NCBI GenBank assembly: GCA_963782055.1
Contig: CAWAIF010000003.1
Coordinates: 928,001 to 992,000, forward strand
Length of the DNA stretch: 64,000 bases
Reading direction: 5' to 3'
DNA from: an uncultured delta proteobacterium
GTDB taxonomy: Bacteria; Myxococcota_A; Polyangia; Polyangiales; Polyangiaceae
Numbering within the stretch: position 1 is the first letter of the stretch; the number at the start of each line of letters is the position of its first letter. Position numbers and translations under genes: made by a program. Below the pieces are notes generated by a model. The model searched no databases. It was not told the DNA's origin and was given only the letters and a program-made list of their open reading frames with translations. Below are positions 38,576 to 59,783 of the stretch, one piece after another.

Positions 38576-38636
38576 GACTTCCTCACTTGTTTGTCCGAGA
38601 GCGCCCGCCTCCCTGGCGGTGCGCGAGAGGGTGTAG

Positions 38637-38652
38637 AGCGAGACGCGTGCCA
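38637..38652 (-). promoter_or_regulatory. sigma-54 -24/-12 promoter of the small-gene/comEA operon
   Basis: Minus strand reads TGGCACGcgtcTCGCT (GG-N10-GC). Confidence 0.75.
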
Positions 38653-38696
38653 CGCACGCCACGGCGGAAATCCGCGCCGAACGCGTGAGCGGCCCC

Positions 38697-38729
38697 TGTC
38701 CCCGGACAGATCGCGGGTGTCCCCGGACA
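38697..38729. promoter_or_regulatory. tandem palindromic sites TGTCC-cc-GGACA x2 (candidate enhancer)
   Basis: Identical 12-mers at 38697 and 38718, a 21-bp period. Confidence 0.75.
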
Positions 38730-38766
38730 CCCCGGCCGTCGTCCGGGCGCGGTCCCGATGAGCTCG

Positions 38767-39786
38767 CTAACGATCGCCCGGTTGCGCGCGTCGGCGCTCG
38801 GGGGGCTCGAGCAGGGTGAAGGCGAGCAGGCACGCCGTGGTGAAGCCGAGCGCGTTGGCGACGCCGTGCACCTCCACCATGCGGGTGATGGAGAAGAGCG
38901 GGTCGTCCGACGCGTCGCGCCCCGCCGACCCGGTGACGGCGAAGGTGGCGGCGAACGCCATGCTGACGACGAGGCTCAGCCCGGCGAGGGCGAAGAGCGC
39001 CGCGGCGGCGCGGCCGCGCCACCCGGGCCGCAAGGCGAGGGCGGCGCGCGTGGCGCGCAGGAAGAGGAGCGCCGCGAGCGCGAGCATGCCCGCCGCCAGC
39101 AGCAGCGCGCTGGTGGCCTCCGTGCCGTGGCTGGTGAGGATGCCGACGGCGGTGAGCGGCACGCCCGCGCACACCGCGACGGCGGCGACGCGGTACTCGA
39201 ACGAGGTGCGCTCCCCCGGCTCGTGGACGAGCCGCCCCACCAGCCCGCAGACCAGCGGCGCGCCGAAGCCGGCGTAGTGGAAGTGCGCCGCCGTCAGCAG
39301 GATGACGGGCTCCCGGAAGCCGAGGGGCGTCGCGCCGCCGCGCGAGAGCGCCAGCCACACCGCGCCCACGGGCAGGTAGAGGAGCCCGACGTCGATGCAG
39401 ACCTCGTCCGCGGTGAACAGCGCGCCCCGGCGCCATCGCCGCGCCGCGCGCGCCACCCCGAGCGCGCCGATGATCCCGCACGCGACGACCCACGCGCCCG
39501 CGAGCACGGCGGCAGCCGCCCCCGGCCGGTAGGTGTAGGATGCAATGACCGCGCACGCGCCGGGGAGCACCGCCATCGCCGCCGCGCGGTCCACGACGGG
39601 CCGCGGCTCTGCCGGCGCGCGCTGGATGACCAGCGCCAGCCCGAGCGGAACGATGGTGATCGCCGCGTAGGCGACCAGCACCTCCGCCGCCCACATGGGG
39701 AGGTACGGGGTGAGGGCGGCGGCGAGGAGCACCACGCCGGTCAGGGCAAGGCGCCTCAGGATGCGGGTCCACGGGTCCGGTGTCAC
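38767..39786 (-). CDS. YndJ-family membrane protein
   Basis: LLTAAHFHYAGF and HGVANALG motifs, multiple TM helices. Confidence 0.85.
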   Translation of the reverse strand: MTPDPWTRILRRLALTGVVLLAAALTPYLPMWAAEVLVAYAAITIVPLGLALVIQRAPAEPRPVVDRAAAMAVLPGACAVIASYTYRPGAAAAVLAGAWVVACGIIGALGVARAARRWRRGALFTADEVCIDVGLLYLPVGAVWLALSRGGATPLGFREPVILLTAAHFHYAGFGAPLVCGLVGRLVHEPGERTSFEYRVAAVAVCAGVPLTAVGILTSHGTEATSALLLAAGMLALAALLFLRATRAALALRPGWRGRAAAALFALAGLSLVVSMAFAATFAVTGSAGRDASDDPLFSITRMVEVHGVANALGFTTACLLAFTLLEPPERRRAQPGDR

Positions 39787-39813
39787 GGCGACTGGTGGTG
39801 TATCCTGCCGACC

Positions 39814-41349
39814 GTGGCCGCGGGCAAGGATCCGTTTCACCTGAGCGGGCAGGTGCTCGACGGACAGTTTCGCGTGGACTCCGTGGTGGGGGAGGGGGGA
39901 TTCTCGGCGGTCTACAAGGGGTTCCACCTCGGACTGGAGGAGCCCATCGCCATCAAGTGCCTCAAGCTCCCCACCACCGTGGGCGCGGCGATGATGGAGT
40001 CCTTCCTGCGGCGCTTCCGCGACGAGAGCAAGCTGCTCTACCGCCTCTCGCAGGGCAACCTCAACATCGTGCGGTCCATCGCGAGCGGCACCGTGGCGCA
40101 GGATGGTCAGGCCATCCCGTACATGGTGCTCGAGTGGCTGGAGGGCGTGTCGCTGGGCGAGGACTTCGACGAGCGGCGGGCGCGCGGCGCCGGTGCGCGG
40201 TCGCTGAGCGAGGTGATGGGGCTCTTCGAGCACGCGGCCGACGCGCTGGCGTACGCGCACGCGCAGGGGGTCATCCACCGGGACCTCAATCCGGGCAACC
40301 TCTTCCTCGCCCGCCGGCGCGAGGGCGGGGTGCGCATGAAGGTCCTGGACTTCGGCGTGGCGAAGGTGGTGAGCGACCACGCGCTGGAGCTCGGCCCGCG
40401 CGCGCCGACGCTCGGCCAGATCCGCATCTTCTCCCCCGGCTACGCGGCGCCGGAGCAGTTCGACGCCACCATCGCCCCCGCCTCACCCGCGACCGACGTC
40501 TACGCCTTCGCGCTCATCCTGACCGAGGCGCTGCTCGGCCGCCCGGTGGTGGAGGGGGTGACGCTCGGTGACTACTTCAAGCAGACCCTCACGCCGACCT
40601 TCGTGCGCACGCCGCGCGCGCTCGGCGCGGGAGTGGGGGAGGCGGTGGAGGCGGTGTTCGCGCGTGCGCTGTCGCTCGACCCGTCGGAGCGCCCCGCCGA
40701 CGTGGGGCGTCTCTGGGCGGAGCTGCAGCAGGCGGCGCGCGGACCGGGGGCGCGCGACCCGCACCCCACCGTGCGGCAGATCGTGCCGCCGTCGGCGGGG
40801 CCGGCGTCGCAGGAGGAGCCCATCCCCTCCACCGACCCGCAGCTCGGCGAGGCCAGCACCTTGCCCGCCGCCATCAAGGTCCCCGGCCCGCCGGCGCCGG
40901 CCCCCGCCGCGCCGGGCGGCACGTCGCTCGCCAACCTGAAGTCCACCGTGCGCATGGCGTCACCACCTCCGCCCGGGCCGTCGCGGTCCACAGCGCCGCT
41001 GCTCCAGGGCGCGGCGATGCCGCCGCCCGCGGGGACGCCGAGCTTCCAGTCGCAGTCCATCCGCGCGTACGGCGGGCCGGTCGAGCCGCTGTCGTCCGAC
41101 CAGGTGCCGGCGCCGCCCGCCGCGCCGTCGCCCGCGCCCGCGCAGCCCCCACCGCCCGCGGTCGCCGTGCCGCCGGCCGGCGCGACACGCGTCCCGACCG
41201 TCAAGATCGAGCGCGCCTCCCTCCCCGCGCCGGGGGAGGTCACCCCGCGCCGCACCAGCCTGCTCGTCCTCGGCCTCGCCGTCTTCTTCGGCGTCCTGCT
41301 GATCGGTGGCGCCATCCTGGCGCTCCTCGTCTGGCGGCAGCGCGCCTGA
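39814..41349 (+). CDS. Ser/Thr protein kinase with C-terminal TM
   Basis: GEGGFSAVY, IAIKCL, HRDLNPGN, DFG and YAAPEQ, then a Pro-rich linker. Confidence 0.92.
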   Translation: MAAGKDPFHLSGQVLDGQFRVDSVVGEGGFSAVYKGFHLGLEEPIAIKCLKLPTTVGAAMMESFLRRFRDESKLLYRLSQGNLNIVRSIASGTVAQDGQAIPYMVLEWLEGVSLGEDFDERRARGAGARSLSEVMGLFEHAADALAYAHAQGVIHRDLNPGNLFLARRREGGVRMKVLDFGVAKVVSDHALELGPRAPTLGQIRIFSPGYAAPEQFDATIAPASPATDVYAFALILTEALLGRPVVEGVTLGDYFKQTLTPTFVRTPRALGAGVGEAVEAVFARALSLDPSERPADVGRLWAELQQAARGPGARDPHPTVRQIVPPSAGPASQEEPIPSTDPQLGEASTLPAAIKVPGPPAPAPAAPGGTSLANLKSTVRMASPPPPGPSRSTAPLLQGAAMPPPAGTPSFQSQSIRAYGGPVEPLSSDQVPAPPAAPSPAPAQPPPPAVAVPPAGATRVPTVKIERASLPAPGEVTPRRTSLLVLGLAVFFGVLLIGGAILALLVWRQRA

Positions 41350-41427
41350 TCTCAACGTCCGTGGAGCAGGCGTTCGCCCGGCGCGCAGCGGAGGGGCCCC
41401 GCGTGCAGCCCTCCCAGGCCAGTCCTC

Positions 41428-43677
41428 TCAGTCGGCGCCCGCGTCGGCCGGCGGCGCCGGACACGTGCTCAGACTCTGCACCCACTGCGTGAGCACGCCG
41501 ACGCCCGCGGTGTCCACCATGCTCGTGGCGAGCGGTGGCATGCGGTACGCGTCCAGCCGTGACGGCCGCTGCACCAGCAGCGACTTCGCCGGATCGCCGG
41601 GCGCGATGATCTTCGCCCCTGCGATCCCCAGATCCCCCGCGCTCGGGTCGACGCCGCACGCCATCGCCGAAGCGAGCGGGGTGCCGAAGCGGAAGTCCAT
41701 GCTCCCGCCGCCGCCCGCGTTGGGCCGGTGGCACATCGAGCAGTTGACGTGCAGGTACGCGCGGGCGCGCGCGTCGAGAGGCCCGGAGCCGAGCGGGTCG
41801 GGGTAGGCCACGAGCTGGTCCACCGGCGCCGGCAGCGGCGTCGAGAACATGCCGATGTGATCCAGCGTGGCCATCTGGTTGGAGAGGCGGTTGGTCTCCG
41901 GGTAGGTGAAGTCGTGATTGAGCTGCCCGATCTCCGGCCCCAGGCTCGTGTTGGCCGCCTGCGTGTGGCAGCGGAAGCACTCCGCGCGGCTGGGGAAGTA
42001 CCAGGTCTGCCCGCCGACATCCTTCGACTTGCTGGAGGGAAGGAGCGTCGCGTCCGTCTGCGCATCGTTCCACTCGTAGCTGTAGCCGCCCCACCCACCG
42101 TCGTCGTGGCGGACGAACAGGCGCGTCTCCACGCGCTTGCCGCCGACGTCGAACTCCTTCACCAGCACCGTGCCGATGGGGAAGTCGAAGTCGCCGTCGG
42201 GCAGCAGGGTGATCGTCTTGCCGTCGGGAAGCGCCATCCAGCGGTGCTTCTCCGCGCCGTCGCTCCACAGGCGGCTCGACGGCTCGTAGGGGATGAGTCC
42301 CGGCGCGGCCTTCGTCGGGTCGCCGGGGTCGACGCAGCCGGTCTTGGAGAGGGTGGCGGGGAAGGTGTCCGGCGGCGTCGGGCCGGAGGCCACGAGCTGG
42401 TAGACCGCCCCGTACAGGGAGACCGCGAAGACCTCGCCGTCCTGATCCTGCGCGAAGTCCACCCAGCCTCCGCCGCCGCCGTTGGGGACATCGGCGACGA
42501 CAGGCTTGCCCTGCGCGTCCACCGTCAGGCTCCACACCTTGCCGCTGCCGTTGTCGCCGAAGACGTAGGTGCCGACGAAGGAGGGGATGGCCTTGCCGCG
42601 GTAGACCACGCCGCCGATGACCGCGTTGCCCTGCGAGTGATCGTAGTTCCAGATGGGATCGATCAGCCCCGCGGTCGGGCAGTTGGTCGCGGGGCTGTAG
42701 CAGTGCTGCCCCTCGCGCACGTTCCAGCCGTAGTCGCCGCCGGCGCTCACGCCGAGGTCGATCTCCTCCCAGAGGTTCTGTCCGACGTCGCCCACCACGA
42801 CCTGGTCGGTCGCCATGTCCACGCTGAAGCGGAAGGGGTTGCGGAAGCCGTAGGCGAAGGTCGCCGGCTCGCCGCCGGCGCTGGCGAAGGGGTTGCCCGG
42901 CGGGATGCCGTAGGTCTTGCCCTGCGGGACGTTGTCCACGTCCAGCCGCAGGATCTTGGAGAAGAAGAGGTTGGTGTTCTGCCCGTGGCCGAGCGGGTCG
43001 CCGCCGGAGCCGCCGTCGCCGAAGGAGCAGTACAGGTAGCCGTCGCTGCCGAAGTTCAGGTCGCCGCCGTCGTGGTTGGTGTACGGCTGGTCGAAGGAGA
43101 GGAGCTCCTTGTAGCTGGCCGCGGGGAAGGTCTTGCCGCCGTCGGTGCTGGTCATCTCCGCGATGACCGAGCGCATGTTGGCGGCGGAGGTGCCGCTCGT
43201 GGTGGTGAAGGAGATGTAGACCTTGCCGTTCTGGGCGAACTTTGGGTGAAAGGCCATCCCGAGGAAGCCGCCCTCGCCGGCGGTCTGCAGCGGCTTGGGG
43301 ATGGTGAGGACCGTCGTCTTGGTGGCGTCCACAGGGTTCTGCGCGTCGAAGGAGACGGCGGTGCCGCTGCGCAGCGCCGCGAACCAGCGCGAGCCGTCCC
43401 CGGGGATCTGCGTGAGCAGCATCGGCGTGTTGAGGGTCAGCCCGGGAAAGACCTTCTTCAGCTCCACCGCCGAGGGCGCCTGCGGCCGCGCCGGCGCGAG
43501 GCACGTCGTGTTGGAAGGCCGCGCGTCGAGCCCGAACGGCGCGGGCGTGGGACCGGTCTCCACCGCCGCGTCCGGCCCGCCGCTCGTGCTGTCGTCGCCG
43601 CCGCACCCGCCCGCCGCCGCCGCAGCCAGAAGGCAGACGGCGGCGCATGCCCCCACGAAGCCACACTTCCACCGCAT
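41428..43677 (-). CDS. PQQ-dependent sugar dehydrogenase-like lipoprotein fused to a dihaem cytochrome c region
   Basis: GEGGFLGMAFHP, NHDGG, GFRNP and GDVGQ, plus CFRCH and CSMCH haem motifs. Confidence 0.88.
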   Translation of the reverse strand: MRWKCGFVGACAAVCLLAAAAAGGCGGDDSTSGGPDAAVETGPTPAPFGLDARPSNTTCLAPARPQAPSAVELKKVFPGLTLNTPMLLTQIPGDGSRWFAALRSGTAVSFDAQNPVDATKTTVLTIPKPLQTAGEGGFLGMAFHPKFAQNGKVYISFTTTSGTSAANMRSVIAEMTSTDGGKTFPAASYKELLSFDQPYTNHDGGDLNFGSDGYLYCSFGDGGSGGDPLGHGQNTNLFFSKILRLDVDNVPQGKTYGIPPGNPFASAGGEPATFAYGFRNPFRFSVDMATDQVVVGDVGQNLWEEIDLGVSAGGDYGWNVREGQHCYSPATNCPTAGLIDPIWNYDHSQGNAVIGGVVYRGKAIPSFVGTYVFGDNGSGKVWSLTVDAQGKPVVADVPNGGGGGWVDFAQDQDGEVFAVSLYGAVYQLVASGPTPPDTFPATLSKTGCVDPGDPTKAAPGLIPYEPSSRLWSDGAEKHRWMALPDGKTITLLPDGDFDFPIGTVLVKEFDVGGKRVETRLFVRHDDGGWGGYSYEWNDAQTDATLLPSSKSKDVGGQTWYFPSRAECFRCHTQAANTSLGPEIGQLNHDFTYPETNRLSNQMATLDHIGMFSTPLPAPVDQLVAYPDPLGSGPLDARARAYLHVNCSMCHRPNAGGGGSMDFRFGTPLASAMACGVDPSAGDLGIAGAKIIAPGDPAKSLLVQRPSRLDAYRMPPLATSMVDTAGVGVLTQWVQSLSTCPAPPADAGAD

Positions 43678-43754
43678 GCCGTCAGCGTATCACGCACCAC
43701 GGCCGAGCCAGGAGCGTTACAGACGCGCTCATCCGGGCTTGATACCCTGGAGGC

Positions 43755-45230
43755 GTGGGCGCGGACGTCTTCGGACTTGGAGGTCACGTCATCGACGGAC
43801 AGTTCCATGTCATGGACGTCGTCGGCGAGGGCGGGTTCTCGGTCGTCTACCGCGGGCAGCACCTGTCGCTGAAGGAGCCCATCGCGATCAAGTGCCTGAA
43901 GATCAGGACCAAGCAGAAGAGCGAGAAGCTCGTGCAGTCCTTCACCCAGCGCTTCTGGGACGAGAGCCGCATCATGTACCGGCTCTCGCAGGGCAACCTG
44001 GACATCGTGCGGTGCATCACCACCGGCTCCACCATCGCCCCGACGACAGGCGAGACGGTGCCGTACATGGTGCTGGAGTGGCTGGAGGGCGTCTCGCTCG
44101 CCCAGGACTTGCGGCAGCGCCGGGCCGAGCAGCGCCAGGGCCGCACGCCGGAGGAGCTCATCGAGCTCTTCGAGCCGGCGGCGACCGCCATCGCCTACGC
44201 GCACTCGCAGGGCATCGTGCACCGCGACGTCAAGCCGGGGAACCTCTTCGTGCACGCCACGCGCGCGGGCCAGCGCCTGAAGGTGCTGGACTTCGGCATG
44301 GCCAAGATCCTCGAGCCGCAGGCCATGGGCGGGATGCAGGGCGCGGCCACGCTGACCAACTTCATGGTCGCCTCGCCGCAGTACGCGACGCCGGAGCAGC
44401 TCGACCCGCACCACGGCGCCATCGGTCCGTGGACCGACGTCTACGCCTTCGCGCTCATCCTCGTCGAGGCCATGCTGGACCGTCGCCTGCGCTCGGCCGA
44501 CACCCTCACCAATCTCATCGCGCAGGTCGCGCGCGGGCAGCTCACCACACCGCGCGCGATGGGGCTGCACGTGAGCGACGCGATGGAGGCGGTCTTTCGC
44601 TCCGCCCTCGCGGTGAAGTCGACGGACCGGCAGGCGGACATGGAACGGTTCTGGTCGGCCTTCACCGCGTCGGCGAAGGCGCCCGCCCCCGCCGCGCGTC
44701 AGGATTTCGCGCAGACCGTCGCGTCGCCGCCGCCCCAGGCGGAGCCGCCGCGACCGGCGGCCGCGCTCGGTCAGACGCTGCCGCTCTCCGCCGTGCGCTC
44801 GCGGGTGGTCGGTCGTCAGGCGGCGGGCCAGGGTGGCACCGCGCTGATGCCGAACCAGAGCGCCATGGAGCTCGTCGCCGCGGCGCGCGCCAACCGGGCG
44901 GCGTCGCAGCCCCCGCCCGCCGGGCCGAAGGCCCCGAGTCCCATGGCGGGTACCGTGGGCGGGCCGCCGCCCGCGCAGGCGCTGTCCCAGCAGCCGGCGA
45001 ACGTCGTACCCGCGTGGGCCACCGCGCTGCCGCACTCGCGGGTGACACCACCTCCTCCTGGCCCCGCCCCGCCCTTCGCGCCTGCCGCGTCGGAGCCGCC
45101 GCCCGCGCTCGCCCCGCCCGCGCCCTCCCGCCCGGCCTGGCTGTGGGTGGTCGTCGCGATCAGCATCCTGGCGCTGCTGGGCAGCGTGGGCGTGATCGCG
45201 TACGTCATGCTGGTCGCGCGCACACGATGA
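43755..45230 (+). CDS. Ser/Thr protein kinase with C-terminal TM
   Basis: GEGGFSVVY, HRDVKPGN, DFG and YATPEQ. Confidence 0.92.
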   Translation: MGADVFGLGGHVIDGQFHVMDVVGEGGFSVVYRGQHLSLKEPIAIKCLKIRTKQKSEKLVQSFTQRFWDESRIMYRLSQGNLDIVRCITTGSTIAPTTGETVPYMVLEWLEGVSLAQDLRQRRAEQRQGRTPEELIELFEPAATAIAYAHSQGIVHRDVKPGNLFVHATRAGQRLKVLDFGMAKILEPQAMGGMQGAATLTNFMVASPQYATPEQLDPHHGAIGPWTDVYAFALILVEAMLDRRLRSADTLTNLIAQVARGQLTTPRAMGLHVSDAMEAVFRSALAVKSTDRQADMERFWSAFTASAKAPAPAARQDFAQTVASPPPQAEPPRPAAALGQTLPLSAVRSRVVGRQAAGQGGTALMPNQSAMELVAAARANRAASQPPPAGPKAPSPMAGTVGGPPPAQALSQQPANVVPAWATALPHSRVTPPPPGPAPPFAPAASEPPPALAPPAPSRPAWLWVVVAISILALLGSVGVIAYVMLVARTR

Positions 45231-45307
45231 GGGTGCCAGGCACCCACACGGCCCGGTCGCGCGCTCCGGACGGACGTGGGGGCTCCGCCCATGCTACAGA
45301 ATCGGCC

Positions 45308-46591
45308 ATGGCCGGCACGCGATCTCGAGAGCTCTTCGCGCGCGCACAGCGCGTCATCCCCGGTGGCGTCAACAGCCCGGTGCGCGCCTTCCGCGCCGTC
45401 GGCGGCGAGCCGCTCTTCATCGCCCGCGCGGCCGGGGCGAAGCTCTGGGACGCGGATGGTGTACAATACACGGATTACGTCGGCTCCTGGGGGCCGATGA
45501 TCCTCGGCCACGCGTACCCCGCGGTGGTGGAGGCCGTGACGAGCGCCGCCAACAACGGCACCAGCTACGGCGCCCCCACCGAGCTGGAGGTCCGCTTCGC
45601 CGAGAAGCTCGTCGAGCTCTACCCGTCGATCGAGATGGTGCGCGCCACCTCCAGCGGCACCGAGGCGACGATGGCCGCCATCCGCGTCGCGCGCGGCTTC
45701 ACCGGCCGCGACGTCGTGGTGAAGTTCGAGGGCTGTTACCACGGCCACGCCGACTTCCTCCTCGTCAAGGCGGGCTCCGGCCTCGCCACCTTCGGCGTGC
45801 CCGACTCCGCCGGTGTCCCCGCCGGGATCGCCGGCACGACGGCCACGCTTCCGTACAACGACGTGGCCAAGCTGAAGGCCCTCTTCGAGGCGCGCGGCGA
45901 GGAGATCGCCGCGGTGATCGTCGAGCCGGTCGTCGGCAACATGGGCTGCGTCCCGCCGGAGCCCGGCTTCCTGCAGGCCATCGTCGACGTGTGCAAGACG
46001 CACGGCGCGGTCAGCATCTTCGACGAGGTGATGACCGGCTGCCGCGTCGCGCGCGGCGGGATGCAGGAGCGCGCGGGCGTGCGCCCCGACATGACGTGCC
46101 TCGGCAAGGTCGTCGGCGGCGGGTTGCCGCTGGCGGCGTACGGCGGGCGCCGAGAGATCATGGAGAAGGTGGCGCCGCTCGGGCCGGTCTACCAGGCGGG
46201 CACGCTGAGCGGGAATCCGGTCGCGGTGAGCGCCGGGCTCGCGACCCTCGAGCACCTCAACGACAAGGTCTACGCCTACCTGGAGAAGCTCGGCGCCGCG
46301 CTCGAGTCGGGGATGCGCGCGGCGCTCGCGAAGACGAAGGTGGAGGGCTGCGTGCAGCGCGTCGGGGCGATGACGACGCTCTTCTTCACCGCCGGGCCGG
46401 TGCGCTCGTGGGACGACGCGAAGAAGGCGGACACGGCGCGCTTCGGCCGCTGGCACCAGGCCATGCTGGCGCACGGCCAGTACTGGCCGCCCTCCCAGTT
46501 CGAGGCGGCGTTCCTGAGCGCCGCGCACTCCGAAGAGGACGTGGCGAAGACGGTGGCCGCCTGCGAGGCGGCGCTCGCGGCGATCGGCTGA
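45308..46591 (+). CDS. hemL: glutamate-1-semialdehyde 2,1-aminomutase
   Basis: PGGVNSPVRAF, SGTEATM, FEGCYHGH, FDEVMTG and YQAGTLSGNP. Confidence 0.97.
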   Translation: MAGTRSRELFARAQRVIPGGVNSPVRAFRAVGGEPLFIARAAGAKLWDADGVQYTDYVGSWGPMILGHAYPAVVEAVTSAANNGTSYGAPTELEVRFAEKLVELYPSIEMVRATSSGTEATMAAIRVARGFTGRDVVVKFEGCYHGHADFLLVKAGSGLATFGVPDSAGVPAGIAGTTATLPYNDVAKLKALFEARGEEIAAVIVEPVVGNMGCVPPEPGFLQAIVDVCKTHGAVSIFDEVMTGCRVARGGMQERAGVRPDMTCLGKVVGGGLPLAAYGGRREIMEKVAPLGPVYQAGTLSGNPVAVSAGLATLEHLNDKVYAYLEKLGAALESGMRAALAKTKVEGCVQRVGAMTTLFFTAGPVRSWDDAKKADTARFGRWHQAMLAHGQYWPPSQFEAAFLSAAHSEEDVAKTVAACEAALAAIG

Positions 46592-46740
46592 GGGCCCCTC
46601 CGCCCGCGCGCGATTTGCACGAGGTACCCCCGCCGCGCCCGCCTTTTGCGAGTCGCCGCGTGTCTTGCGCCCGGCCGCCGTGGACACGCCAGAAGATCGC
46701 GTCCGTCCGCGGCGGCACGCGCCGTGCTCAGTCCAGAGTC

Positions 46741-47172: not shown

Positions 47173-47224
47173 GCTTCCCCACGACACACCTCCCGGCGTC
47201 CCTACCTTCTGGTAGTGTGCTGGC

Positions 47225-48607: not shown

Positions 48608-48628
48608 CCGCGCGGCGAGGCCCCCGCC

Positions 48629-49267
48629 TCAGTAGGCGACGGTGAAGCGGCTGCGGACGTGCTTGGGGTGCTCCAGCTCGTCGACGACGGCGGCCGCGTA
48701 GTCCGGGATGGAGATGCGGCTCGCGCCGGTGGCGTCGACCAGAAGATCGTCCCCGCCCACGCGGAAGGTGCCGGTGCGCTGGCCGGGCTCGACGAGCGCG
48801 GCGGGGCTGACGCAGGTCCACGCCAGATCGCTCACCTGGCGGTACACGTTGAGCGCGTTGCGGTGGGCGATGGCGACGGCCCGCCAGTCCGCCGGGAAAT
48901 CGGGTGAGTCCAGCAGGTCGACGCCCCTCGCGGTGCGCAGGCTGCCGGCGCCGCCCACGACGAGCACCCGCTTCACGCCAGCCTTCCGCGCCCCGGCGAC
49001 GAGCGCGTGCGCGACGTCCACCAGCAAATCGGCCGGTTGGTTGGCTGCCGGGCCGACCGCGCTCACGATCGCCTCGTGTCCACGCGCCACGCGCGCCACG
49101 GCGTTGGCGTTGCTCACGTCGGCCGTGGCGCGATGAAGTCTCGCCTCCGCGGCGGCGATCTTGCCGACGTGCCTCGCGACGGCCGTGACGCCGTGGCCGC
49201 GTCGCAGCGCTTCCTGGACGATGGCGCCGCCGATTTTGCCGGTGGCGCCGAAGACAATCAGCTTCAA
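48629..49267 (-). CDS. NAD(P)H-binding oxidoreductase (YwnB-like)
   Basis: VFGATGKIG, VVGGAGSL and SRISIPDYA. TTG start with a GAGG RBS. Confidence 0.9.
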   Translation of the reverse strand: MKLIVFGATGKIGGAIVQEALRRGHGVTAVARHVGKIAAAEARLHRATADVSNANAVARVARGHEAIVSAVGPAANQPADLLVDVAHALVAGARKAGVKRVLVVGGAGSLRTARGVDLLDSPDFPADWRAVAIAHRNALNVYRQVSDLAWTCVSPAALVEPGQRTGTFRVGGDDLLVDATGASRISIPDYAAAVVDELEHPKHVRSRFTVAY

Positions 49268-49444
49268 GGGGACCTCCTCTTGCTCCCGGTGCGCAAGCTG
49301 CGGTCGGCTTCAAGACGACTCCTCACTTCGATGCTCGCGGGGCCGGCACGTTGTGCCGCGGGGTCGGCGCGGGTCGGGGCTCCGCGTGCGGCGCGCCCCG
49401 GCAGGGCGGGCTTCGCTCGCCGCGCCCCCGCGGCGATGAAGTGT

Positions 49445-49690
49445 CTACTTGGACATGAGGAAGGCGTGGAGGATGCCGTCCTGCGAGGCGACGAGGAGGC
49501 GGCGGGAGGCGACGGAGAGCCAGCCACCGTACGCGGCGGTCCAGGCCTGCTTGTGCGTCGCGATGTTGACGGCGTAGACGTTCTTGTCGCTCGCGACATA
49601 GACGTACCCGGCCGCGATGACCGGCGGGAGCTTGAGGGAGCCGTCCCCGGAGAAGGTCCAGGCGAGCGAGCCGTCCTGCGCGAACCGCGG
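49445..49690 (-). pseudogene. C-terminal fragment of a PQQ-like beta-propeller protein
   Basis: GSLAWTF...YVYVAS...VYAVN...AWT blades with no credible N-terminus. The upstream DNA belongs to the divergent gene. Confidence 0.55.
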
Positions 49691-49724
49691 CCACCTGGGG
49701 TAGCATGGGGGGAGGAGGTCTCCC

Positions 49725-50816
49725 ATGCGCGTGCTCTCGCTCTCGCTCCTTCTTTGCCTCGCGGTCGCGTGCGGCGGGGACGACTCCGCCGGCACGCCCG
49801 ACGCCGGCGGCGCGGACTCCGGGACCACCCCCGACGGCTCCAGCCCGCCGGATGGCTCCACCTCGCCCGACGCGTCCACCTCTCCCGACGCCGCCGCGCC
49901 GAGCGGGCTCGCCGCGCAGTACCCGGGCGACGTCGGCATCGACTCCGACCCGGCCGTCGTGTGGCACGAGCCCTTCGAGGAAGGGTCGGTCGGCGCCGTG
50001 ACCGCGCGCTACGACGACTTCAAGAACGCGCCGGGCATGACGCTGGTCGCCGACGTGCCGCCGAAGAGCTCCGGCAAGGCGTCGATGAAGCTCGTGGCGG
50101 GCGGCAACCAGAGCGCGACCGACCTCTTCAAGGAGCTCACCAACGGGAGCGGCGGCTACGAGGAGTGGTACGTGCGCTGGTACGCCAAGTACCAGAAGGG
50201 CGTCCCGTGGCACCACACCGGCGTCTGGTTCGGCGGCTACGATCCGGCCTCCAAGTACCCCAACCCGCAGGCGGGGCTGAAGCCCAACGGCGACGACCGC
50301 TTCTCCGTCTCCATCGAGCCGGTGTGGGACATCGGCGGGCCGAACCCGCGCTTCGACACGTACGACTACTGGATGCAGATGCACTCCTGGATGGCGCAGC
50401 CGCAGGGCAACACTGCCTATTACGGCAACGCGGTCATCCACAAGAACTCCTTCACGCTCGACGAGGAGCAGTGGGTGTGCGTCGAGGTGCACGTGAAGCT
50501 CAACACCGACACCGCCTCCGGCGGCGGCGGGGTGCTGGAGGTGTGGAAGAACGACGCGCTCGTCCAGAGCTTCACCGACCAGGGACCGAAGGGGTACTGG
50601 ATCAAGGACAAGTTCTGCACGCCCGACGCCGACGGCACCGAGTGCACCGACTACCCCGCGCCCTTCGACACCGTGCTCGACCTGCAGATGCGCTCCACCA
50701 GCGCCCTGAAGCTGAACGCCTTCTGGCCGCAGAACTACATCACCGACAACGCCACCGGCGCGGTGCAGTACGACGACATGATCGTCGCGACCAAGCGAAT
50801 CGGCTGCCTGCAGTAG
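49725..50816 (+). CDS. lipoprotein with a concanavalin/polysaccharide-lyase-like beta-sandwich
   Basis: AVAC lipobox, PDG linker, WYVRWYAKY, WVCVEVHVKLN and YDDMIVA. Confidence 0.75.
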   Translation: MRVLSLSLLLCLAVACGGDDSAGTPDAGGADSGTTPDGSSPPDGSTSPDASTSPDAAAPSGLAAQYPGDVGIDSDPAVVWHEPFEEGSVGAVTARYDDFKNAPGMTLVADVPPKSSGKASMKLVAGGNQSATDLFKELTNGSGGYEEWYVRWYAKYQKGVPWHHTGVWFGGYDPASKYPNPQAGLKPNGDDRFSVSIEPVWDIGGPNPRFDTYDYWMQMHSWMAQPQGNTAYYGNAVIHKNSFTLDEEQWVCVEVHVKLNTDTASGGGGVLEVWKNDALVQSFTDQGPKGYWIKDKFCTPDADGTECTDYPAPFDTVLDLQMRSTSALKLNAFWPQNYITDNATGAVQYDDMIVATKRIGCLQ

Positions 50817-50870
50817 GTCGCGCGGACCACCGGGGAAGCGGACCTGACCTGGCCCGCCACGTCGGCTATC

Positions 50871-51797
50871 ATGGTCCGGATGCACCGGGCCCTGGGTCGT
50901 CTCGTCCTCCTCGGAGGCGTCGTGTCGGGCGCCGGCGTCCTGGCGATCGCCTGCGGACTCGACCCCAGCGGGCTGGCGGATCTGGACGGGGGGGTCGGCG
51001 ATCACGACGATGGCGGCGCCGGCGCCGATGCGTTCGACCTGCCGGAGGCGTGCAGCTCGCTCGACGCCAGCGCGTGCCTCGGCGCGCTGCCCGCCGGGTG
51101 GCAGCCGGTCTCGGTCGGATCGTCCTGCCCCGCCGGCTACCAGGCCGTGCCGTTCGTGACCGACCCGAGCGTGCCCGACGGCGGCTGCACGTGCGGCGCG
51201 TGCACGGTGAGCGGCACGTACTCCTGCGACGCGTCGGTCCCGATTTCGGGCGGCAACGGCTGCGGGGACAACCCCTTCGCGAACGCGACGCCCGGGCAGT
51301 GCAGCAACGTGAACCAGACGCAGCACCTCAAGGCGCACCTGGTGAAGGCGACCGGCAGCGTCTCCTGCTCCGCGCCGAACGACGCCGGTAGCGGCGCCGT
51401 GGCGACGCCGACGACCGTCTGCGTCCCGGGCTGCGACGTCGACTTCTGCGCCGGCGCCTCCCTCTGCGCGATGGCGGACGGACATCGCGCCTGCCCGCCG
51501 GGCCTGCCGCGCTCGCTCTACGTCGGCACCGGCGCCGACCCGGGGTGCGCGCCCTGCGGGTGCGACGCGAGCGCTCCGGAGAACTGCGCCGGCACCGTCA
51601 CCGCGTACTACGGCAACGACTGCACGCCCGGCGACGAGGCGGGGACCTGGCCGGTCGACACCTGCCAGTACATCCAGGCCAAGTACAAGAGCGTACACGT
51701 CGACCTCACCGCGCCGCCGGCGACGTGCACCGTGGCGAGCGCCACGGTCGAGGGCGACGCGAGCCTCATCGGCGAGAAGACCGTCTGCTGCCAGTGA
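50871..51797 (+). CDS. Cys-rich lipoprotein
   Basis: AIAC lipobox, CTCGAC/CGC motifs and terminal TVCC. Confidence 0.8.
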   Translation: MVRMHRALGRLVLLGGVVSGAGVLAIACGLDPSGLADLDGGVGDHDDGGAGADAFDLPEACSSLDASACLGALPAGWQPVSVGSSCPAGYQAVPFVTDPSVPDGGCTCGACTVSGTYSCDASVPISGGNGCGDNPFANATPGQCSNVNQTQHLKAHLVKATGSVSCSAPNDAGSGAVATPTTVCVPGCDVDFCAGASLCAMADGHRACPPGLPRSLYVGTGADPGCAPCGCDASAPENCAGTVTAYYGNDCTPGDEAGTWPVDTCQYIQAKYKSVHVDLTAPPATCTVASATVEGDASLIGEKTVCCQ

Positions 51798-51807
51798 GCG
51801 CGCCGGA

Positions 51808-52323
51808 TCAGTGGCACACGTCCACGGCGTGCTCGTTCGCCGCGCACGTCGGCGCGGTGTCGGCCTGACTGCAGGAGGGGACCTCCGTCTCGGAGGCCAG
51901 GCACGCGGTCGACGAGCAGGAGCAGCTCGCGCCGAGCGGGCTCCCCTGACCGGTCACGCAGCAGTGGCCTCCGGACGGAGGCGTGCACGAGGCCGTCGAC
52001 GTCCCGTCGGCGGCGCTCGCCGTCACGCTGCACTTGCACACCAGGAGCGTCCCCGATCCGGAGGTGTAGCAGTGAGTCGTGATGGTGCAGGAGCACGCAC
52101 CCGACGCCGGGTAGTCCGCCGACGCGCAGCACACTCCGTCCCCGCCCTGGATGGCGGCGGCCGAGCACGTGGTGTCGCTGCTGCCCGCGTCGCTCGGCGC
52201 GCAGTCGCAGAACGTGCCGCTTCCGGTGCAGGTGATCGCTTGCGACGAGGTCGCGTCATTCGCGCCGCAAGCGACGGCGAGCAGCCCCCCCAAGAGTAAC
52301 CCGATCCGCCGCGTGATCATCAT
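51808..52323 (-). CDS. Cys-rich lipoprotein
   Basis: LAVAC lipobox and about 20 Cys residues. Confidence 0.75.
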   Translation of the reverse strand: MMITRRIGLLLGGLLAVACGANDATSSQAITCTGSGTFCDCAPSDAGSSDTTCSAAAIQGGDGVCCASADYPASGACSCTITTHCYTSGSGTLLVCKCSVTASAADGTSTASCTPPSGGHCCVTGQGSPLGASCSCSSTACLASETEVPSCSQADTAPTCAANEHAVDVCH

Positions 52324-52459
52324 GGTCACCCTACGGGACTCATGATGACAATGCCAGTTCGCAGCCCGGTGTTCTTCGGGATGCTCCTCGGGTTCATGCT
52401 CGCGGGCGCGGAGCGACGCACACCGCTGGTGATCCGCCCCGCGGTCGGATCACCGTGGG

Positions 52460-53023
52460 TCAGGGCCGGAGCAGCCCGTCTCTGGTCACGTCCTCGAAGA
52501 ATCGAGAGGCTGCCGCGTGGGCGGCGTTCCTCTCGCTCGGGGTGAACGCGCTGATCCACGACACTGGCAGCGCGCCCAGCCAGACGAACATGTGGCGGTT
52601 GATAGGGTACGCGTAGGACCTGAGCATCTGGCCGTTGCGGAAGACCTCGAAGATGACGTCGCAGCCGGTCTCGCCGTTGTAAAATGGAATGATCGTCAAG
52701 AAGGAGAGCGCAACGTAGCCGTAGATCTTTCCGGCGAGCGACATCTCGTGATCCCGGGTGCGGACGCGGACGAACGTGCCGGTGGCGGGGGCGTCGTACT
52801 CTTCAATCTCTCGCGCGCGTGGGAACCTCTCGCGCATGGCCGCGACGACGCCGTCGCGACCGCCGAACAGGTAGGCGCCGCGCATGACGTTGAAGCTCTG
52901 GAGGCCGTCGACCGGGGCGATGGCATCCGGAGCCGCGGGGTTGCTCATCCACGAGACGCAGCCCGTGAGGAAGAACGTGGCGAGGAGGAATGCTCCGACC
53001 GGCGCGAGCCTCTTCGGGTCCAT
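52460..53023 (-). CDS. lipoprotein/membrane protein of unknown function
   Basis: FLTGC lipobox and internal hydrophobic segment SFLTIIPFY. Confidence 0.7.
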   Translation of the reverse strand: MDPKRLAPVGAFLLATFFLTGCVSWMSNPAAPDAIAPVDGLQSFNVMRGAYLFGGRDGVVAAMRERFPRAREIEEYDAPATGTFVRVRTRDHEMSLAGKIYGYVALSFLTIIPFYNGETGCDVIFEVFRNGQMLRSYAYPINRHMFVWLGALPVSWISAFTPSERNAAHAAASRFFEDVTRDGLLRP

Positions 53024-53564
53024 GGCGGAGACCGTACATGGCTCAGCCGTGTAGATCAACATCGACAGCCGGGGACAGAGGAGTATCGGCGGTGGCCGTA
53101 GGCCGACTCATGACTCATGGGTGCTCATCCCGACTTGTACGGCACTTCGGTCCCTATCGCGCCGGCCTCCAAGGCGCACTCGATGACCTGCGCGAGTGCA
53201 AGTGCGAGTTCGCTGCCGGCCGACACAACCAGGTACCCCGCCGTTGCCCTTCTCGGGCCCTCTCTCAAGTTCTCGTCGCCTGCCTTCGAACGGCAGAGGC
53301 TGGCGCCCTGGCCGGCGAGACCCGTCGCACCGGGATCCGAATGGTGAGCGCCGGCGACACCCGGACGGCGAGTACGTTGATTGTCCTCGCCTTCCGAGGC
53401 TGCACGCGGCGATGCCATCCCCCCGTCGGGCGTCAGGCCGCGCGCGAGCCGTGCGTCGGTGGTGCAGACATCGGTCTGTATCCCCCACACGGTAGCGGGG
53501 ACGCCTCACAAACCTGGAGGCGAGCGAGTTCGACTCTCGTTGCAGTCACCACCCGCCCTCGCGC

Positions 53565-54377
53565 TCAGCCGAGGGCGAACACCCGCCGCGCGTTGCCGTC
53601 GAGGAACATCCCGCGCGCCTCGTCGTCCAGGCCCAGCGCGTCCAGGGCCTCCAGCGCCTTGTGCGGGAGGATCATGGGGTAGTTGGAGCCGAAGAGCACC
53701 TTCTTGCGGCCGCCGCCCTGCATGTAGCGCACGAGCTCCGGCGGGTAGCGCTTGCAGGTGTACGCCGAGGTGTCGATGTAGACGTTCGGGTACTTGCGGG
53801 CGAGGGCGATCATCTCCTCCGTCCACGGGTAGCCGATGTGCCCGGCCACGATGACCAGGTCGGGGAAGTCCAGCGCCACGTCGTCCAGGTACGGGATGGG
53901 CCGCCCCGGCTCGGAGGAGCGCAGCGGCCCGGTGTGCCCGGCCTGCGTGCAGAAGGGCACGCCCAGCTCCACGCACTCGGCGTAGAGCGGGTAGTAGCGC
54001 CGGTCGTTGGGTGGCAGCCCCCAGAGCCAGGGCAGCATGCGAAGTCCCTTGAAGCCCAGCTCCTTCACGCACCGCCGGAGCTCGCGGACCGCCCGCATCG
54101 GCTTGTGCAGATCGACCGACGCCACGCCGGCGAAGCGGGTGGGGTGCGCCGCCACCATGCGCGCCACCTCGTCGTTGGGGATGAGCGCGCCCTGCGGCCC
54201 GTGCCACGCCGAGAGGAGGGCGACCTCGACGCCGGCGGCGTCCATCGCGGCGAGCGTCATGTCCGCGGGGAGCTCCTCCTCGGGCACCTCCGTCCCCGTC
54301 CAGCGCAGGAGGGAGGCGAACATCTCGTCTTGCAGGAAGTGCCGTGTGGGGTGCTGGATCCAGGCGTCGATGGTCAT
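53565..54377 (-). CDS. amidohydrolase family 2 protein
   Basis: GFKGLR, GHIGYPW, NVYIDTS and VLFGSNYP. ATGA coupling to the upstream gene. Confidence 0.9.
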   Translation of the reverse strand: MTIDAWIQHPTRHFLQDEMFASLLRWTGTEVPEEELPADMTLAAMDAAGVEVALLSAWHGPQGALIPNDEVARMVAAHPTRFAGVASVDLHKPMRAVRELRRCVKELGFKGLRMLPWLWGLPPNDRRYYPLYAECVELGVPFCTQAGHTGPLRSSEPGRPIPYLDDVALDFPDLVIVAGHIGYPWTEEMIALARKYPNVYIDTSAYTCKRYPPELVRYMQGGGRKKVLFGSNYPMILPHKALEALDALGLDDEARGMFLDGNARRVFALG

Positions 54378-55486
54378 GGCTTGGCGGTGGCGACGGTGAG
54401 ATCGTCGAACCAGAAGCTCTGCGCGACGGGCGAGCCGTCGCCGATGTAGGGCAGCATCAGGAACTGGTCGAACTGCATGCTGGCGTGCGCCCCGGTGCGA
54501 AAGAGGATCTGGTCGGAGGAGAGCACCAGGTCCCCGTCCACGGCGAGCCGGATCTTGCCGTCGGGCATGCCGACACCGCCCTGGATGGAGTTGAGCGCGT
54601 AGTACGCCTCCATGTAGTGCCAGTCGTTCTTGAAGTGCGGGCCCGCGCCGTCGGTGAACCACGCCGCGCCGCCGTTGCCGCGCCAGGTGCGCGCGCTGTA
54701 CCACGGCGCGGTGTCGTTGCCGTTGACCGAGTAGCAATCACGCTGATCGAGGAAGCCCTGGAGCCCGTTGCACGAAGCGGCGGACCGGCTCTCGGTGAAC
54801 TTGTAGGACTTGAAGTCTCCGTTGCACCCCACGAAGGAGTCGTCGTTCTTCAGGACGCACGCGGGGTCGACGTTGCTCAGATCCTGGATGGCGAGGCGCG
54901 GGGAGCCGCCGCCGGCGACCCACACCACCTCGAAGTAGGTGGTGAGGTGCGTGCCCGCGGGGCCGACGTAGTCGGTGTCCTCGTTGGTCACCAGGTGCAT
55001 CATGTGGGGGTGGTACGGCTTGCCGGAGCCGACCCAGTTGCTCCCGAACTTGACCCAGACGCCGATGTAGACGCTCTGGCTCGGCGTGAACTTGTGGCGC
55101 GCGGGGGTGCCCCCCGTGCAGTTGGTGCCGCCCTTGGCGAAGGCGCACTCGAAGCTGCTGGTGCTGCCCTGGGCGTGCTCGCTCGTGACGACGCTTCCGC
55201 CGCTGGAGTCGTACCAGCCGCGCTTGGCGAACTGGGTGTCGTCGAAGTCTTCCTGGAAGAGGACGGTGCCGCCGGTCGGGATGCCGCCGGCGTCGCCGCT
55301 CGTGCCGCCGTCGGTGGGGGAGGGCGCGTCGGTCGCGGCGCCGTCGCCGGGGGTGCCGGCGTCGGGGGTGCCGGCGCCGTCGAGCGATGCGTCCGGGCCT
55401 GCGTCGGCGGTCTCGTCGGAGCCGGAGCTGCAGCCGGCGAGGAGGGCGAGCGCGAGGGCGAGGGCGGAGCAACGGAGTCGGTTCAT
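54374..55486 (-). CDS. lipoprotein with a concanavalin/polysaccharide-lyase-like beta-sandwich
   Basis: LLAGC lipobox, LFQEDFDD, WHYMEAYYALN and WFDDLTVA. Confidence 0.75.
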   Translation of the reverse strand: MNRLRCSALALALALLAGCSSGSDETADAGPDASLDGAGTPDAGTPGDGAATDAPSPTDGGTSGDAGGIPTGGTVLFQEDFDDTQFAKRGWYDSSGGSVVTSEHAQGSTSSFECAFAKGGTNCTGGTPARHKFTPSQSVYIGVWVKFGSNWVGSGKPYHPHMMHLVTNEDTDYVGPAGTHLTTYFEVVWVAGGGSPRLAIQDLSNVDPACVLKNDDSFVGCNGDFKSYKFTESRSAASCNGLQGFLDQRDCYSVNGNDTAPWYSARTWRGNGGAAWFTDGAGPHFKNDWHYMEAYYALNSIQGGVGMPDGKIRLAVDGDLVLSSDQILFRTGAHASMQFDQFLMLPYIGDGSPVAQSFWFDDLTVATAKP

Positions 55487-55548
55487 CCGATCATGGTACG
55501 AGCGGCGTCGCTGAGTTCAAACCTTCTCCGGCCGCCGCAGGAGGGCCC

Positions 55549-55578
55549 TTGATACTAGCATGCTAGCAAGCTAGTACG
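55549..55578 (+). promoter_or_regulatory. sigma-70-like promoter overlapped by a triple CTAG operator
   Basis: TTGATA-17 bp-TAGTAC, with CTAGCATG CTAGCAAG CTAGTACG at an 8-bp period. Confidence 0.65.
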
Positions 55579-55586
55579 TTCGCCGG

Positions 55587-55760
55587 ATGCCGGACGACGT
55601 GAAGCAGTTCAACGTCTACCTGCCCGCCGACCTGATCCGCGAGGTGAAGCACCACGCCGTCGAGACGGAGCAGTCGCTCTCGGCGATCGTCGCGGCGGCG
55701 CTGCGCGCTCACCTCGCCGCGCACCGGCCCAGGCGGCGCCCGCCCGGAAAGGAGAAGTGA
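55587..55760 (+). CDS. ribbon-helix-helix (CopG-like) regulator, 57 aa, absent from the ORF track
   Basis: [43 protein letters not shown] shows a beta-strand-helix-helix pattern. Confidence 0.85.
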
Positions 55761-55761
55761 C

Positions 55762-56118
55762 ATGAAGACCGAGGGTATCGAGGCCGTCTTCCTGACGACC
55801 CACAACTGGGGCAAGGCGGCGAAGTTCTTCCAGGCGCTCGGCTACACGCTCGAGTTCGAGACCGACCACCACTCCGGCCAGCTCCGCAACGGCGCGGGGC
55901 CGTACCTGTTCATCGCCGAGGTGCCGGAGAGCGAGCCTGCGGACGTGCGGCTCGTCATGAAGGTCGCCGACGCCGCGGCGTTCCAGCCGGATCCCGTCGT
56001 GAAGGTCCTCACGCCGTTCCAGGACACGCACTGGGGCACGAAGGAGATGACGGTGGAGGATCCGGACGGGCGCGTCTGGAGCCTCCAGGCACCTGGCAGG
56101 CCCGGCGGGGGCGCGTGA
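55762..56118 (+). CDS. VOC/glyoxalase family protein
   Basis: KFFQALGY and THWGTKEMTVEDPDG. AGGAG RBS. Confidence 0.88.
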   Translation: MKTEGIEAVFLTTHNWGKAAKFFQALGYTLEFETDHHSGQLRNGAGPYLFIAEVPESEPADVRLVMKVADAAAFQPDPVVKVLTPFQDTHWGTKEMTVEDPDGRVWSLQAPGRPGGGA

Positions 56119-56981
56119 GCGTCGTGCCGGAGGACGACACCGGGCCGGAGAGCACGGCGGCGCGGACCGCGCTGTGGCGGGCCCTGCATGTCGTGGCCGA
56201 CCCCGCGCCGCACGTCCTGGAGGACGAGCTCGGGCTCCGGCTGCTGGCGCCGGAGGACGACTGGCGCAGCCGCCCCGACATGGACGTGCGCTTCACGCGA
56301 CCCTTCCGCGCCGCGATCGTCGCGCGCGCGCGCTTCGTCGAGGACCTGGTGCTGGAACAGGCGGCGCGCGGCGTCGAGCAGTACGTCATCCTGGGAGCCG
56401 GGCTGGACACCTTCGCCCAGCGACGGCCGGAGAGCGCCTCGCGCGTGGTCGTCTTCGAGGTCGATCGACCTGGTCCTCAGGCATGGAAGCGCCGGCGTCT
56501 CGTCGAGCTGGGCCTCGGCGTCCCCTCCTCCCTGCGGCTCGTGCCCGTCGACTTCGAGGCGGGCGACGCGTGGTGGGAGCGGCTGGCGGCGCCGGGCTTC
56601 GACGCCACCAGACCCGCGGTCGTGGCCTCCGCGGGCGTCAGCATGTACCTCAGCAAGGGCGCGATCACCGCCACGCTGCGCCGCGCCGCCACGCTCGCGT
56701 CCGGCTCGACGCTGGTCATGACCTTCATGCTCCCGATCGACCGGGTGAGCCCGGAGGTGCGCGCCGGAATGGCCCGCGCGATGGAAGGTGCGCGCGCGAG
56801 CGGCACGCCGTTCGCCAGCTTCTTCACCCCGGAGGAGATGCTTGCGCTCGCGCGCGAGGCCGGCTTCCGGGACGTCGAGCACGTGTCCTCCGGCGCGATG
56901 GGGGAGCGCTACTTCGCGGGCAGGACCGACGGTCTTCGCCCGCCGGGCGCGTCGGAGGAGCTGCTGATCGCCCGGACGTGA
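56115..56981 (+). CDS. class I SAM-dependent methyltransferase (LCM-like)
   Basis: TALWRA, QYVILGAGLDT, FEVD and GVSMYL. Confidence 0.9.
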   Translation: MSVVPEDDTGPESTAARTALWRALHVVADPAPHVLEDELGLRLLAPEDDWRSRPDMDVRFTRPFRAAIVARARFVEDLVLEQAARGVEQYVILGAGLDTFAQRRPESASRVVVFEVDRPGPQAWKRRRLVELGLGVPSSLRLVPVDFEAGDAWWERLAAPGFDATRPAVVASAGVSMYLSKGAITATLRRAATLASGSTLVMTFMLPIDRVSPEVRAGMARAMEGARASGTPFASFFTPEEMLALAREAGFRDVEHVSSGAMGERYFAGRTDGLRPPGASEELLIART

Positions 56982-56999
56982 CGGCGCGGTCCCGCGGGG

Positions 57000-57033
57000 T
57001 GTCCCCGGGACAGGTCGAAACTGTCCCCGGACA
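57000..57033. promoter_or_regulatory. tandem palindromic sites TGTCC-N3/N2-GGACA (candidate enhancer)
   Basis: tgtccccgggaca at 57000 and tgtccccggaca at 57022. Confidence 0.75.
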
Positions 57034-57076
57034 CCCCGCGTCGCGCCGCCACCGCGGAAAACGCCTGACTTCGCGC

Positions 57077-57092
57077 CGGCACGCGCCTCGCA
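57077..57092 (+). promoter_or_regulatory. sigma-54 -24/-12 promoter of comM-recA
   Basis: CGGCACGcgccTCGCA (GG-N10-GC), near-identical to 38637-38652. Confidence 0.72.
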
Positions 57093-57105
57093 ATGAGGGT
57101 CGGTC

Positions 57106-58751: not shown

Positions 58752-59783
<1,032 letters not shown>

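Follow-up and report, generated by a model that had tools for sequence, protein, structure and literature searches.

Sigma-54-type enhancer-promoters shared by DNA uptake and recombination genes suggest a competence regulon in the Polyangiales

Two unlinked operons share an enhancer-promoter layout

In a 64,000-nucleotide stretch of DNA from an uncultured member of the Polyangiaceae (assembly GCA_963782055.1, contig CAWAIF010000003.1, positions 928,001 to 992,000; hereafter the window), two unlinked operons, one bearing a small gene and a comEA-like gene and the other comM and recA, are preceded by the same arrangement of a sigma-54-type promoter and upstream half-sites. Sequence comparison suggests that this arrangement marks the core of a sigma-54-dependent competence regulon of the order Polyangiales, most likely governed by an activator with an FHA domain and joined by hitchhiking genes, a reading that we favor with moderate confidence. 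That the enhancer-promoter shared by the uptake and recombination genes is real appears very likely. It is common to comEA, comEC, comM-recA and radC, and in the genome under study (G000; other G-numbers are relatives, while L-numbers denote loci and C3 a contig of G000) also to ssb and to an XPB-like helicase/DUF790 pair. Each of these promoters combines a -24/-12 element, an A/T tract 18 base pairs (bp) before it, and three to five half-sites, TG(G/T/A)C(C/G), spaced ~10 bp apart over the interval from 30 to 75 bp upstream of the promoter.

A first-pass annotation had placed two TGTCC-GGACA boxes and a promoter ahead of each operon, and all four boxes were recovered at exactly the same positions. 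The elements are as follows.

38718..38729, minus strand: distal palindrome of locus 1 (two half-sites)
38697..38708, minus strand: proximal palindrome of locus 1, at 21 bp from the distal palindrome and with its end 44 bp upstream of the promoter
38668..38675, minus strand: GCGG plus A/T tract in the locus 1 spacer
38637..38652, minus strand: sigma-54-type -24/-12 promoter of locus 1, predicted start near 38626, conserved at 22 of 24 orthologous loci
57000..57012, plus strand: distal palindrome of locus 2 (3-bp center)
57022..57033, plus strand: proximal palindrome of locus 2, whose end lies 43 bp upstream of the promoter
57054..57061, plus strand: GCGG plus A tract in the locus 2 spacer
57077..57092, plus strand: sigma-54-type promoter of locus 2, predicted start near 57103, 3 nucleotides before the comM ATG

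The box was said to occur nowhere else in the window, and a search for TGTCC-N1-4-GGACA indeed returned these four matches, against 0.26 expected and at most 2 in 100 shuffles. The spacer lengths of 44 and 43 bp, the identity of the two promoters at 13 of 16 bases, and the GCGGA followed by an A/T run in both spacers were likewise as described. Two points required revision. The TCGC at -12 is present in both promoters but is not special, position 13 being occupied by T in 57 of 91 orthologous promoters, by C in 31 and by G in 3. Similarly, the paired palindromes exist as sequences but are better described as three to five half-sites ~10 bp apart. Across the 91 promoters, half-sites numbered 23, 35, 26, 44 and 34 at distances of 30-34, 40-44, 50-54, 60-64 and 70-74 bp, respectively, compared with ~6 per bin in shuffles, and there was no clear excess nearer than 30 bp. 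The promoters thus possess both the GG-N10-GC -24/-12 element and the upstream activator sites in helical phase (10-bp periodicity) that characterize a sigma-54 regulon. A or T at 18 bp upstream was found in 90% of the 91 promoters; this tract may represent a DNA bend. Start codons often lie 27-29 nucleotides past the first base of the 16-mer (window positions 57077-57106, and most comM, radC, comEC, MarR and IS91 promoters), so the predicted transcripts would be nearly leaderless.

The layout is conserved across the order

We measured conservation in G000 and 30 relatives, leaving out loci at contig edges, using a promoter score of at least 18; this cut-off was fixed after the first promoters of relatives had been viewed and was kept unchanged for all held-out genomes. 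A looser cut-off of 16.3 was dropped because it let through dprA in 16 of 28 loci. The promoter was found at 22 of 24 small-gene loci, 24 of 27 radC loci, 22 of 26 comM loci (the locus 2 promoter) and 21 of 28 comEC loci. In 20 held-out genomes of the same order the corresponding values were 17/17 for comM, 16/19 for radC and 13/18 for comEC. Together, these counts bear out the prediction that the layout would be kept upstream of orthologues across the order. Four genomes of the same class gave 4/5 (comM), 2/4 (radC) and 0/4 (comEC), and six genomes of other classes gave 0/5, 0/6 and 0/6, respectively. Five further genomes from other classes displayed the promoter at 3/5 comM and 2/2 radC loci, with GGACA-type arrays in G037 and G152, so the layout, though patchy, extends beyond the order.

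Exact TGTCC boxes numbered 0-15 per relative, which seemed a negative result until lineage-specific drift of the half-site resolved it. The half-site is TGTCC in G000 and G007, TGGCC in G001-G006, and TGGCG in G009, G011, G012, G019, G020, G022 and G026. A Labilithrix genome record likewise carries a TGTCC box and promoter ahead of the same small gene.

Genes under the shared promoters

The gene identities assigned by the annotation hold, with the comEA-like protein falling under the TIGR cut-offs. The four genes at the two loci are:

38306..38575, minus strand: 89-residue protein of no known family, with four predicted beta-strands and invariant K7, W21 and R23
37785..38297, minus strand: comEA-like gene with an N-terminal hydrophobic segment and a C-terminal helix-hairpin-helix; start codon uncertain (38297 or 38228)
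57106..58653, plus strand: comM (YifB-family AAA+ ATPase), TIGR00368 531.7 bits (cut-off 362.4)
58752..59783, plus strand: recA without an SOS-like box, TIGR02012 498.3 bits (cut-off 325.3)

The comEA-like protein passes Pfam HHH_3 and scores below the cut-offs of TIGR01259 (61.2 vs 152.35) and TIGR00426 (51.2 vs 53.1). The 89-residue gene precedes comEA in 21 of 24 loci. Its product matched no Pfam or NCBIfam family, and its Atlas matches were unnamed Myxococcota clusters only; a structure model (predicted local distance difference test score 70) had no clear fold match (best Z 3.3), an absence that is not to be taken as evidence for a new fold. Of 30 loci, 23 have recA following comM, 5 do not and 2 are too short, and the comM-recA gap contains no promoter- or terminator-like site.

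In G000 as a whole, TGTCC-N-GGACA occurs 69 times with a 2-bp center and 2-13 times with each other center from 0 to 8. The 74 boxes with a 2- or 3-bp center form 65 clusters, of which 3 lie inside predicted genes, 48 precede a MarR-like gene and 14 are elsewhere. Promoter matches of at least 18 form a background at 934 of 6508 predicted genes. When non-MarR genes were ranked by half-site content, a ranking that is partly circular in that the array weights were set by hand from the same G000 sites, the top 17 included the small gene, comM, ssb, radC and the XPB-like helicase with DUF790. The remainder were five Uma2 genes, three IS91-like genes, a HEPN gene, a trypsin-like protease, a 271-residue secreted protein and one orphan promoter. 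Just below these 17, behind two genes without a clear array, came another Uma2 gene, the sixth, and comEC. One Uma2 and one IS91 protein were scanned in Pfam, and the other copies were assigned from their sequences.

The annotation had expected the layout to extend to further competence genes. This was so for comEC, radC and ssb in G000, but not for dprA, comF or the pilin genes. Joint control of comEA and comEC is predicted in G000 and its relatives, as is joint control of comM, recA, radC and ssb, the last in 2 of 27 loci only. Neither the second radC nor the second recA of G000 has the layout; the latter is instead preceded by a different, SOS-like palindrome. The XPB-like helicase (L062:2201-4700; L535) has a damage-recognition domain, is followed by DUF790, and carries host-matched boxes in both G000 and G011. 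The G011 copy, 54% identical, has the layout, three copies that are 40% identical lack it, and G022 and G026 yielded no match. A ComFA-like role for the XPB/DUF790 pair is a guess. Two full-array promoters, at G000:C3:6428615 (minus strand) and C3:1338804 (minus strand) (L067, L061), have no clear gene behind them and possibly drive small RNAs; neither gave a credible Rfam match.

A candidate activator covaries with the half-site

G000 encodes an RpoN-like protein (C3:2800824, recognized by a motif only) together with activators bearing the GAFTGA motif. The annotation had proposed that one enhancer-binding protein serves both uptake and recombination genes, a proposal that the conserved layout and the candidate described here support. 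This candidate, at G000:C3:5727967-5729235, combines an FHA domain, an AAA+ domain (PF00158, GAFTGA) and a C-terminal helix-turn-helix. The activators compared with those of G000 comprised 14/14 from G025, 15/15 from G023, 15/17 from G012 and 15/20 from G015. Among the groups common to G000, G023 and G025, the recognition helix is near-invariant in four, whereas the FHA group varies at the final position, X, of the helix P-R-[ST]-[ST]-x-R-X.

The residue at X tracks base 5 of the half-site. Among genomes with at least three half-sites, C was the majority base in 14/14 genomes with Lys or Arg, 1/15 with Asp or Glu and 1/9 with Ser, Ala or Gly (G153 counted as Asp), kin not being independent in this tally. 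Base-5 predictions for 17 new genomes were recorded before their promoters were viewed. In the four genomes predicted from Lys or Arg, all 17 half-sites had C at base 5 (4/4 genomes). Base 5 in the eight Asp genomes was G at 31 half-sites, A at 12, C at 4 and T at 2, with G exceeding C in seven genomes, and five genomes with a small residue were mixed. The cleanest contrast was provided by G098, in which a reversion to Ser within a Lys clade accompanies a shift of base 5 to G 8, C 4. Lys and Arg contact guanine and Asp contacts cytosine by established chemistry. The candidate FHA domain has Ser, Thr or Ala at the site usually occupied by the phosphothreonine-binding Arg. A screen of GAFTGA-type genes for autoregulation revealed none with an upstream box at fewer than 2 mismatches. 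The candidate has an IS66 transposase 138 bp upstream of it (L191:9375-10724), which may have changed its expression.

We propose that the activator, most likely this FHA-AAA+-helix-turn-helix protein, would bind the in-phase half-sites through its Fis-type helix, with Lys or Arg reading the G opposite base 5 and Asp reading a C there, the contacts being inferred. The A/T tract would bend the DNA, and the activator ATPase would open the sigma-54 holoenzyme. Periplasmic DNA capture, inner-membrane import and integration would be induced jointly, with dprA, comF and the pilus run from other promoters. MarR-like cassettes, Uma2 nucleases and IS91-like transposases have acquired the enhancer-promoter, and would be switched on with the regulon.

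Evidence against the proposal and alternative explanations

Several findings weigh against a competence regulon under this activator. dprA and comF are present in G000 without the layout, and dprA lacks it across all loci compared (0/28). None of seven pilin-like genes in G000 has a promoter match, and the ssb promoter is confined to 2 of 27 loci when the best ssb copy per genome is counted. Full arrays also precede members that are not DNA genes, namely the trypsin-like protease, the 271-residue secreted protein and the two orphan promoters. The layout had been predicted to be lost in same-class genomes without an orthologous helix, and this failed, the comM and radC promoters persisting there at 4/5 and 2/4 loci. 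With respect to the activator, the covariation is supported by about three independent changes in the phylogeny. G088 breaks the base-5 rule (C 2, G 1), and G is not uniquely the most frequent base in G062 or G143. The choice between T and G at base 3 does not track the helix: G000 and G006 share the helix PRTTFRK yet use TGTCC and TGGCC, respectively, and no helix residue matches the difference. In G138 and G158 the closest activators carry Asp despite C-type boxes, their placement being unstable, and beyond the order no orthologue was assigned with confidence among the best few of 24-80 activators per genome.

In one alternative, the regulon exists but is driven by a different enhancer-binding protein, or by two in concert, the covariation being a product of shared ancestry. 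The few independent changes and the unexplained base 3 speak for it, as does the presence of the layout in G113, G168, G037 and G152, which have no clear orthologue among the activators compared. A class-wide FHA group with the helix TRYHLRE, near G000:C3:4844784, provides a specific contender. However, that helix is the same in C-type (G113, G158, G168) and G-type (G023, G025) genomes, whereas G098, with its within-clade reversion, and G014 track the FHA candidate, and the held-out base-5 predictions mostly held. We regard a different activator as unlikely and the FHA protein as a probable activator of the regulon.

It might also be asked whether the genes serve a DNA-as-food or post-predation program, in which prey DNA is imported and the recombination genes handle incoming strands. 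Myxobacteria are predators, two secreted proteins (the trypsin-like protease and the 271-residue protein) carry full arrays, and dprA is not co-regulated. On the other hand, the conserved core of comM, recA and radC serves integration rather than catabolism. Moreover, no nucleotide-catabolism-like gene was seen among the 17 top non-MarR genes, inspected by eye and mostly scanned in Pfam, and of 5 relatives tested only 1 has the layout before the 271-residue gene. This explanation appears quite improbable.

Slightly less probable still is a LexA-independent response of DNA damage and recombination repair, in which comEA and comEC would supply repair templates. recA, ssb, radC and the XPB/DUF790 pair are members. 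Myxococcus xanthus recA1 lacks a LexA box, is induced late by ultraviolet light and supports homologous recombination (PMC7029660), and RecA1 increases with mitomycin C (PMC12288472). Nevertheless, lexA, two uvrA genes, uvrB, ruvB, recN, two uvrD genes, mutS and a dnaE-like gene, all located by sequence motifs, lack the layout in G000, while comEA and comEC are among the best-conserved members. A CTGAAC-N7-CAG-like palindrome precedes the second recA and two genes (G000:C3:143617-144747, 2906840-2907526, 2909833-2910705). It is probably the LexA box of G000; it is absent before comM-recA, which on this mark falls outside the LexA SOS regulon. It is highly improbable that the boxes are no more than the termini of a dispersed repeat or mobile element inserted ahead of these genes without bringing them under shared regulation. 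One multi-copy cassette does account for 48 of the 65 box clusters. Yet the distance from boxes to promoter is fixed, predicted genes contain only 3 of the 65 clusters, and across the order the layout persists at orthologues even as its sequence shifts in step at unlinked genes. Overall, that the regulon serves competence appears likely.

Relationship to known systems

In the regulons of ComK (Bacillus), ComX (Streptococcus, Lactococcus), sigma-H (Lactobacillus, Listeria) and TfoX-CRP/QstR (Vibrio), one regulator co-induces comEA and comEC with comM, recA, ssb and radC, as proposed here. The present system differs in employing sigma-54, an ATPase activator and an upstream half-site array, and in leaving dprA, comF and the pilins outside. 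It therefore behaves like a competence regulon, departs from one in those three respects of membership, and has a type of regulator that does not appear in the literature searched. The annotation knew of no sigma-54-driven competence regulon in myxobacteria, and we found none described either. No sigma-54 or enhancer-binding-protein competence master was found in the literature searched, which did not extend to paywalled papers, supplements of bioRxiv preprints or tables of the M. xanthus transcriptome. In the parts of these papers that were available, PMC12288472 does not mention competence, comEA or radC, PMC12378983 does not mention sigma-54 or RpoN, and PMC9705874 and PMC3162934 name no such master. 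Likewise, the available text of PMC12316311 contains neither competence nor comE, and its 11 supplements contain neither comEA nor four COG identifiers.

The two recA genes of G000, one with an SOS-type box and one without, resemble recA1 and recA2 of M. xanthus as described in PMC7029660. There, recA1 stands alone with -10/-35 sites and is not in an operon; here, recA lies behind comM and a sigma-54 promoter. Myxobacterial FHA-domain activators and Fis-type activators such as ZraR share with the candidate the FHA domain, a GAFTGA sigma-54 interaction domain and a C-terminal helix-turn-helix; no target, site or competence role of the FHA activator group was found in the literature searched.

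If correct, a sigma-54 switch would be a new way to control natural transformation, and the second, non-SOS recA would be given a role. The 89-residue protein and the XPB/DUF790 pair are nominated as new competence components. The Polyangiales, including Sorangium, Polyangium and Chondromyces, are rich producers of natural products and are hard to manipulate. A named activator and site would render inducible natural transformation directly testable in this order, as with forced ComX or TfoX elsewhere. Natural transformation has reportedly been described in M. xanthus.

A MarR-like cassette and other passengers

The annotation had allowed that the motif might be scattered genome-wide irrespective of gene function. 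It is indeed scattered, but as copies of one promoter-gene cassette rather than as function-blind repeats. G000 has 58 copies of a MarR-like gene (PF12802; e.g. L061:9896-10492, plus strand) with no transposase of its own. All 58 have a promoter match and at least two half-sites, and hence are not placed independently of promoters. Similarity between near-identical copies spans the interval bounded by the first half-site and the stop codon, and it is lost at these boundaries or no more than a few bases from them. No inverted repeat or target duplication was seen by eye at the ends of 10 near-identical copies, there being no empty sites to compare. The ratio of nonsynonymous to synonymous substitution (dN/dS) was ~0.20 (78 codons, 36 copies), indicative of purifying selection. 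Copies are dispersed between unrelated genes, and the downstream neighbor is convergent in 38 of 55.

Homologues numbered 16 in G001, 8 in G004 and 2 in G007, and none were found in G011 or G022. Their half-sites were TGGCC 29 and TGGCG 8 in G001, and TGGCC 17, TGGCG 2 and TGTCC 1 in G004; the single G007 copy that could be scored has TGTCC by eye. Each set matches the box variant of its host. Like repetitive extragenic palindromic elements and miniature inverted-repeat transposable elements, the cassette is dispersed (58 copies) and non-autonomous. Unlike them, it encodes a protein under purifying selection, and spans enhancer to stop codon, and no terminal repeat is apparent by eye at its ends (10 copies).

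Mobile genes such as these may time themselves to the recombination state of the host. In a bolder reading, which we hold tentatively and consider doubtful, one FHA activator would be the competence master switch across the Polyangiales, with a one-residue DNA code co-evolving with its sites. The transposase-free MarR cassette would then be a selfish or modulating element, expressed only in the competent state, spread by host uptake and recombination, and with its enhancer rewritten in each host.

Five near-identical Uma2 genes and the HEPN gene, each with the enhancer-promoter, lie in L066:2790-17204. Unrelated genes, a WYL regulator and DUF2779 among them, are interposed singly between these, and the whole stretch of ~15 kilobases is reminiscent of a cassette array. 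The IS91-like elements and the MarR cassette have no obvious common end by eye. Further copies of the 89-residue family and of radC, mostly without the promoter, are found in mobile-looking regions (L055-L060; G000:C3:5359547-5365270). In addition, eight 349-residue open reading frames with a common N-terminus (e.g. G000:C3 1993737, 2003491 and 2765023) resemble group II intron reverse transcriptases by eye.

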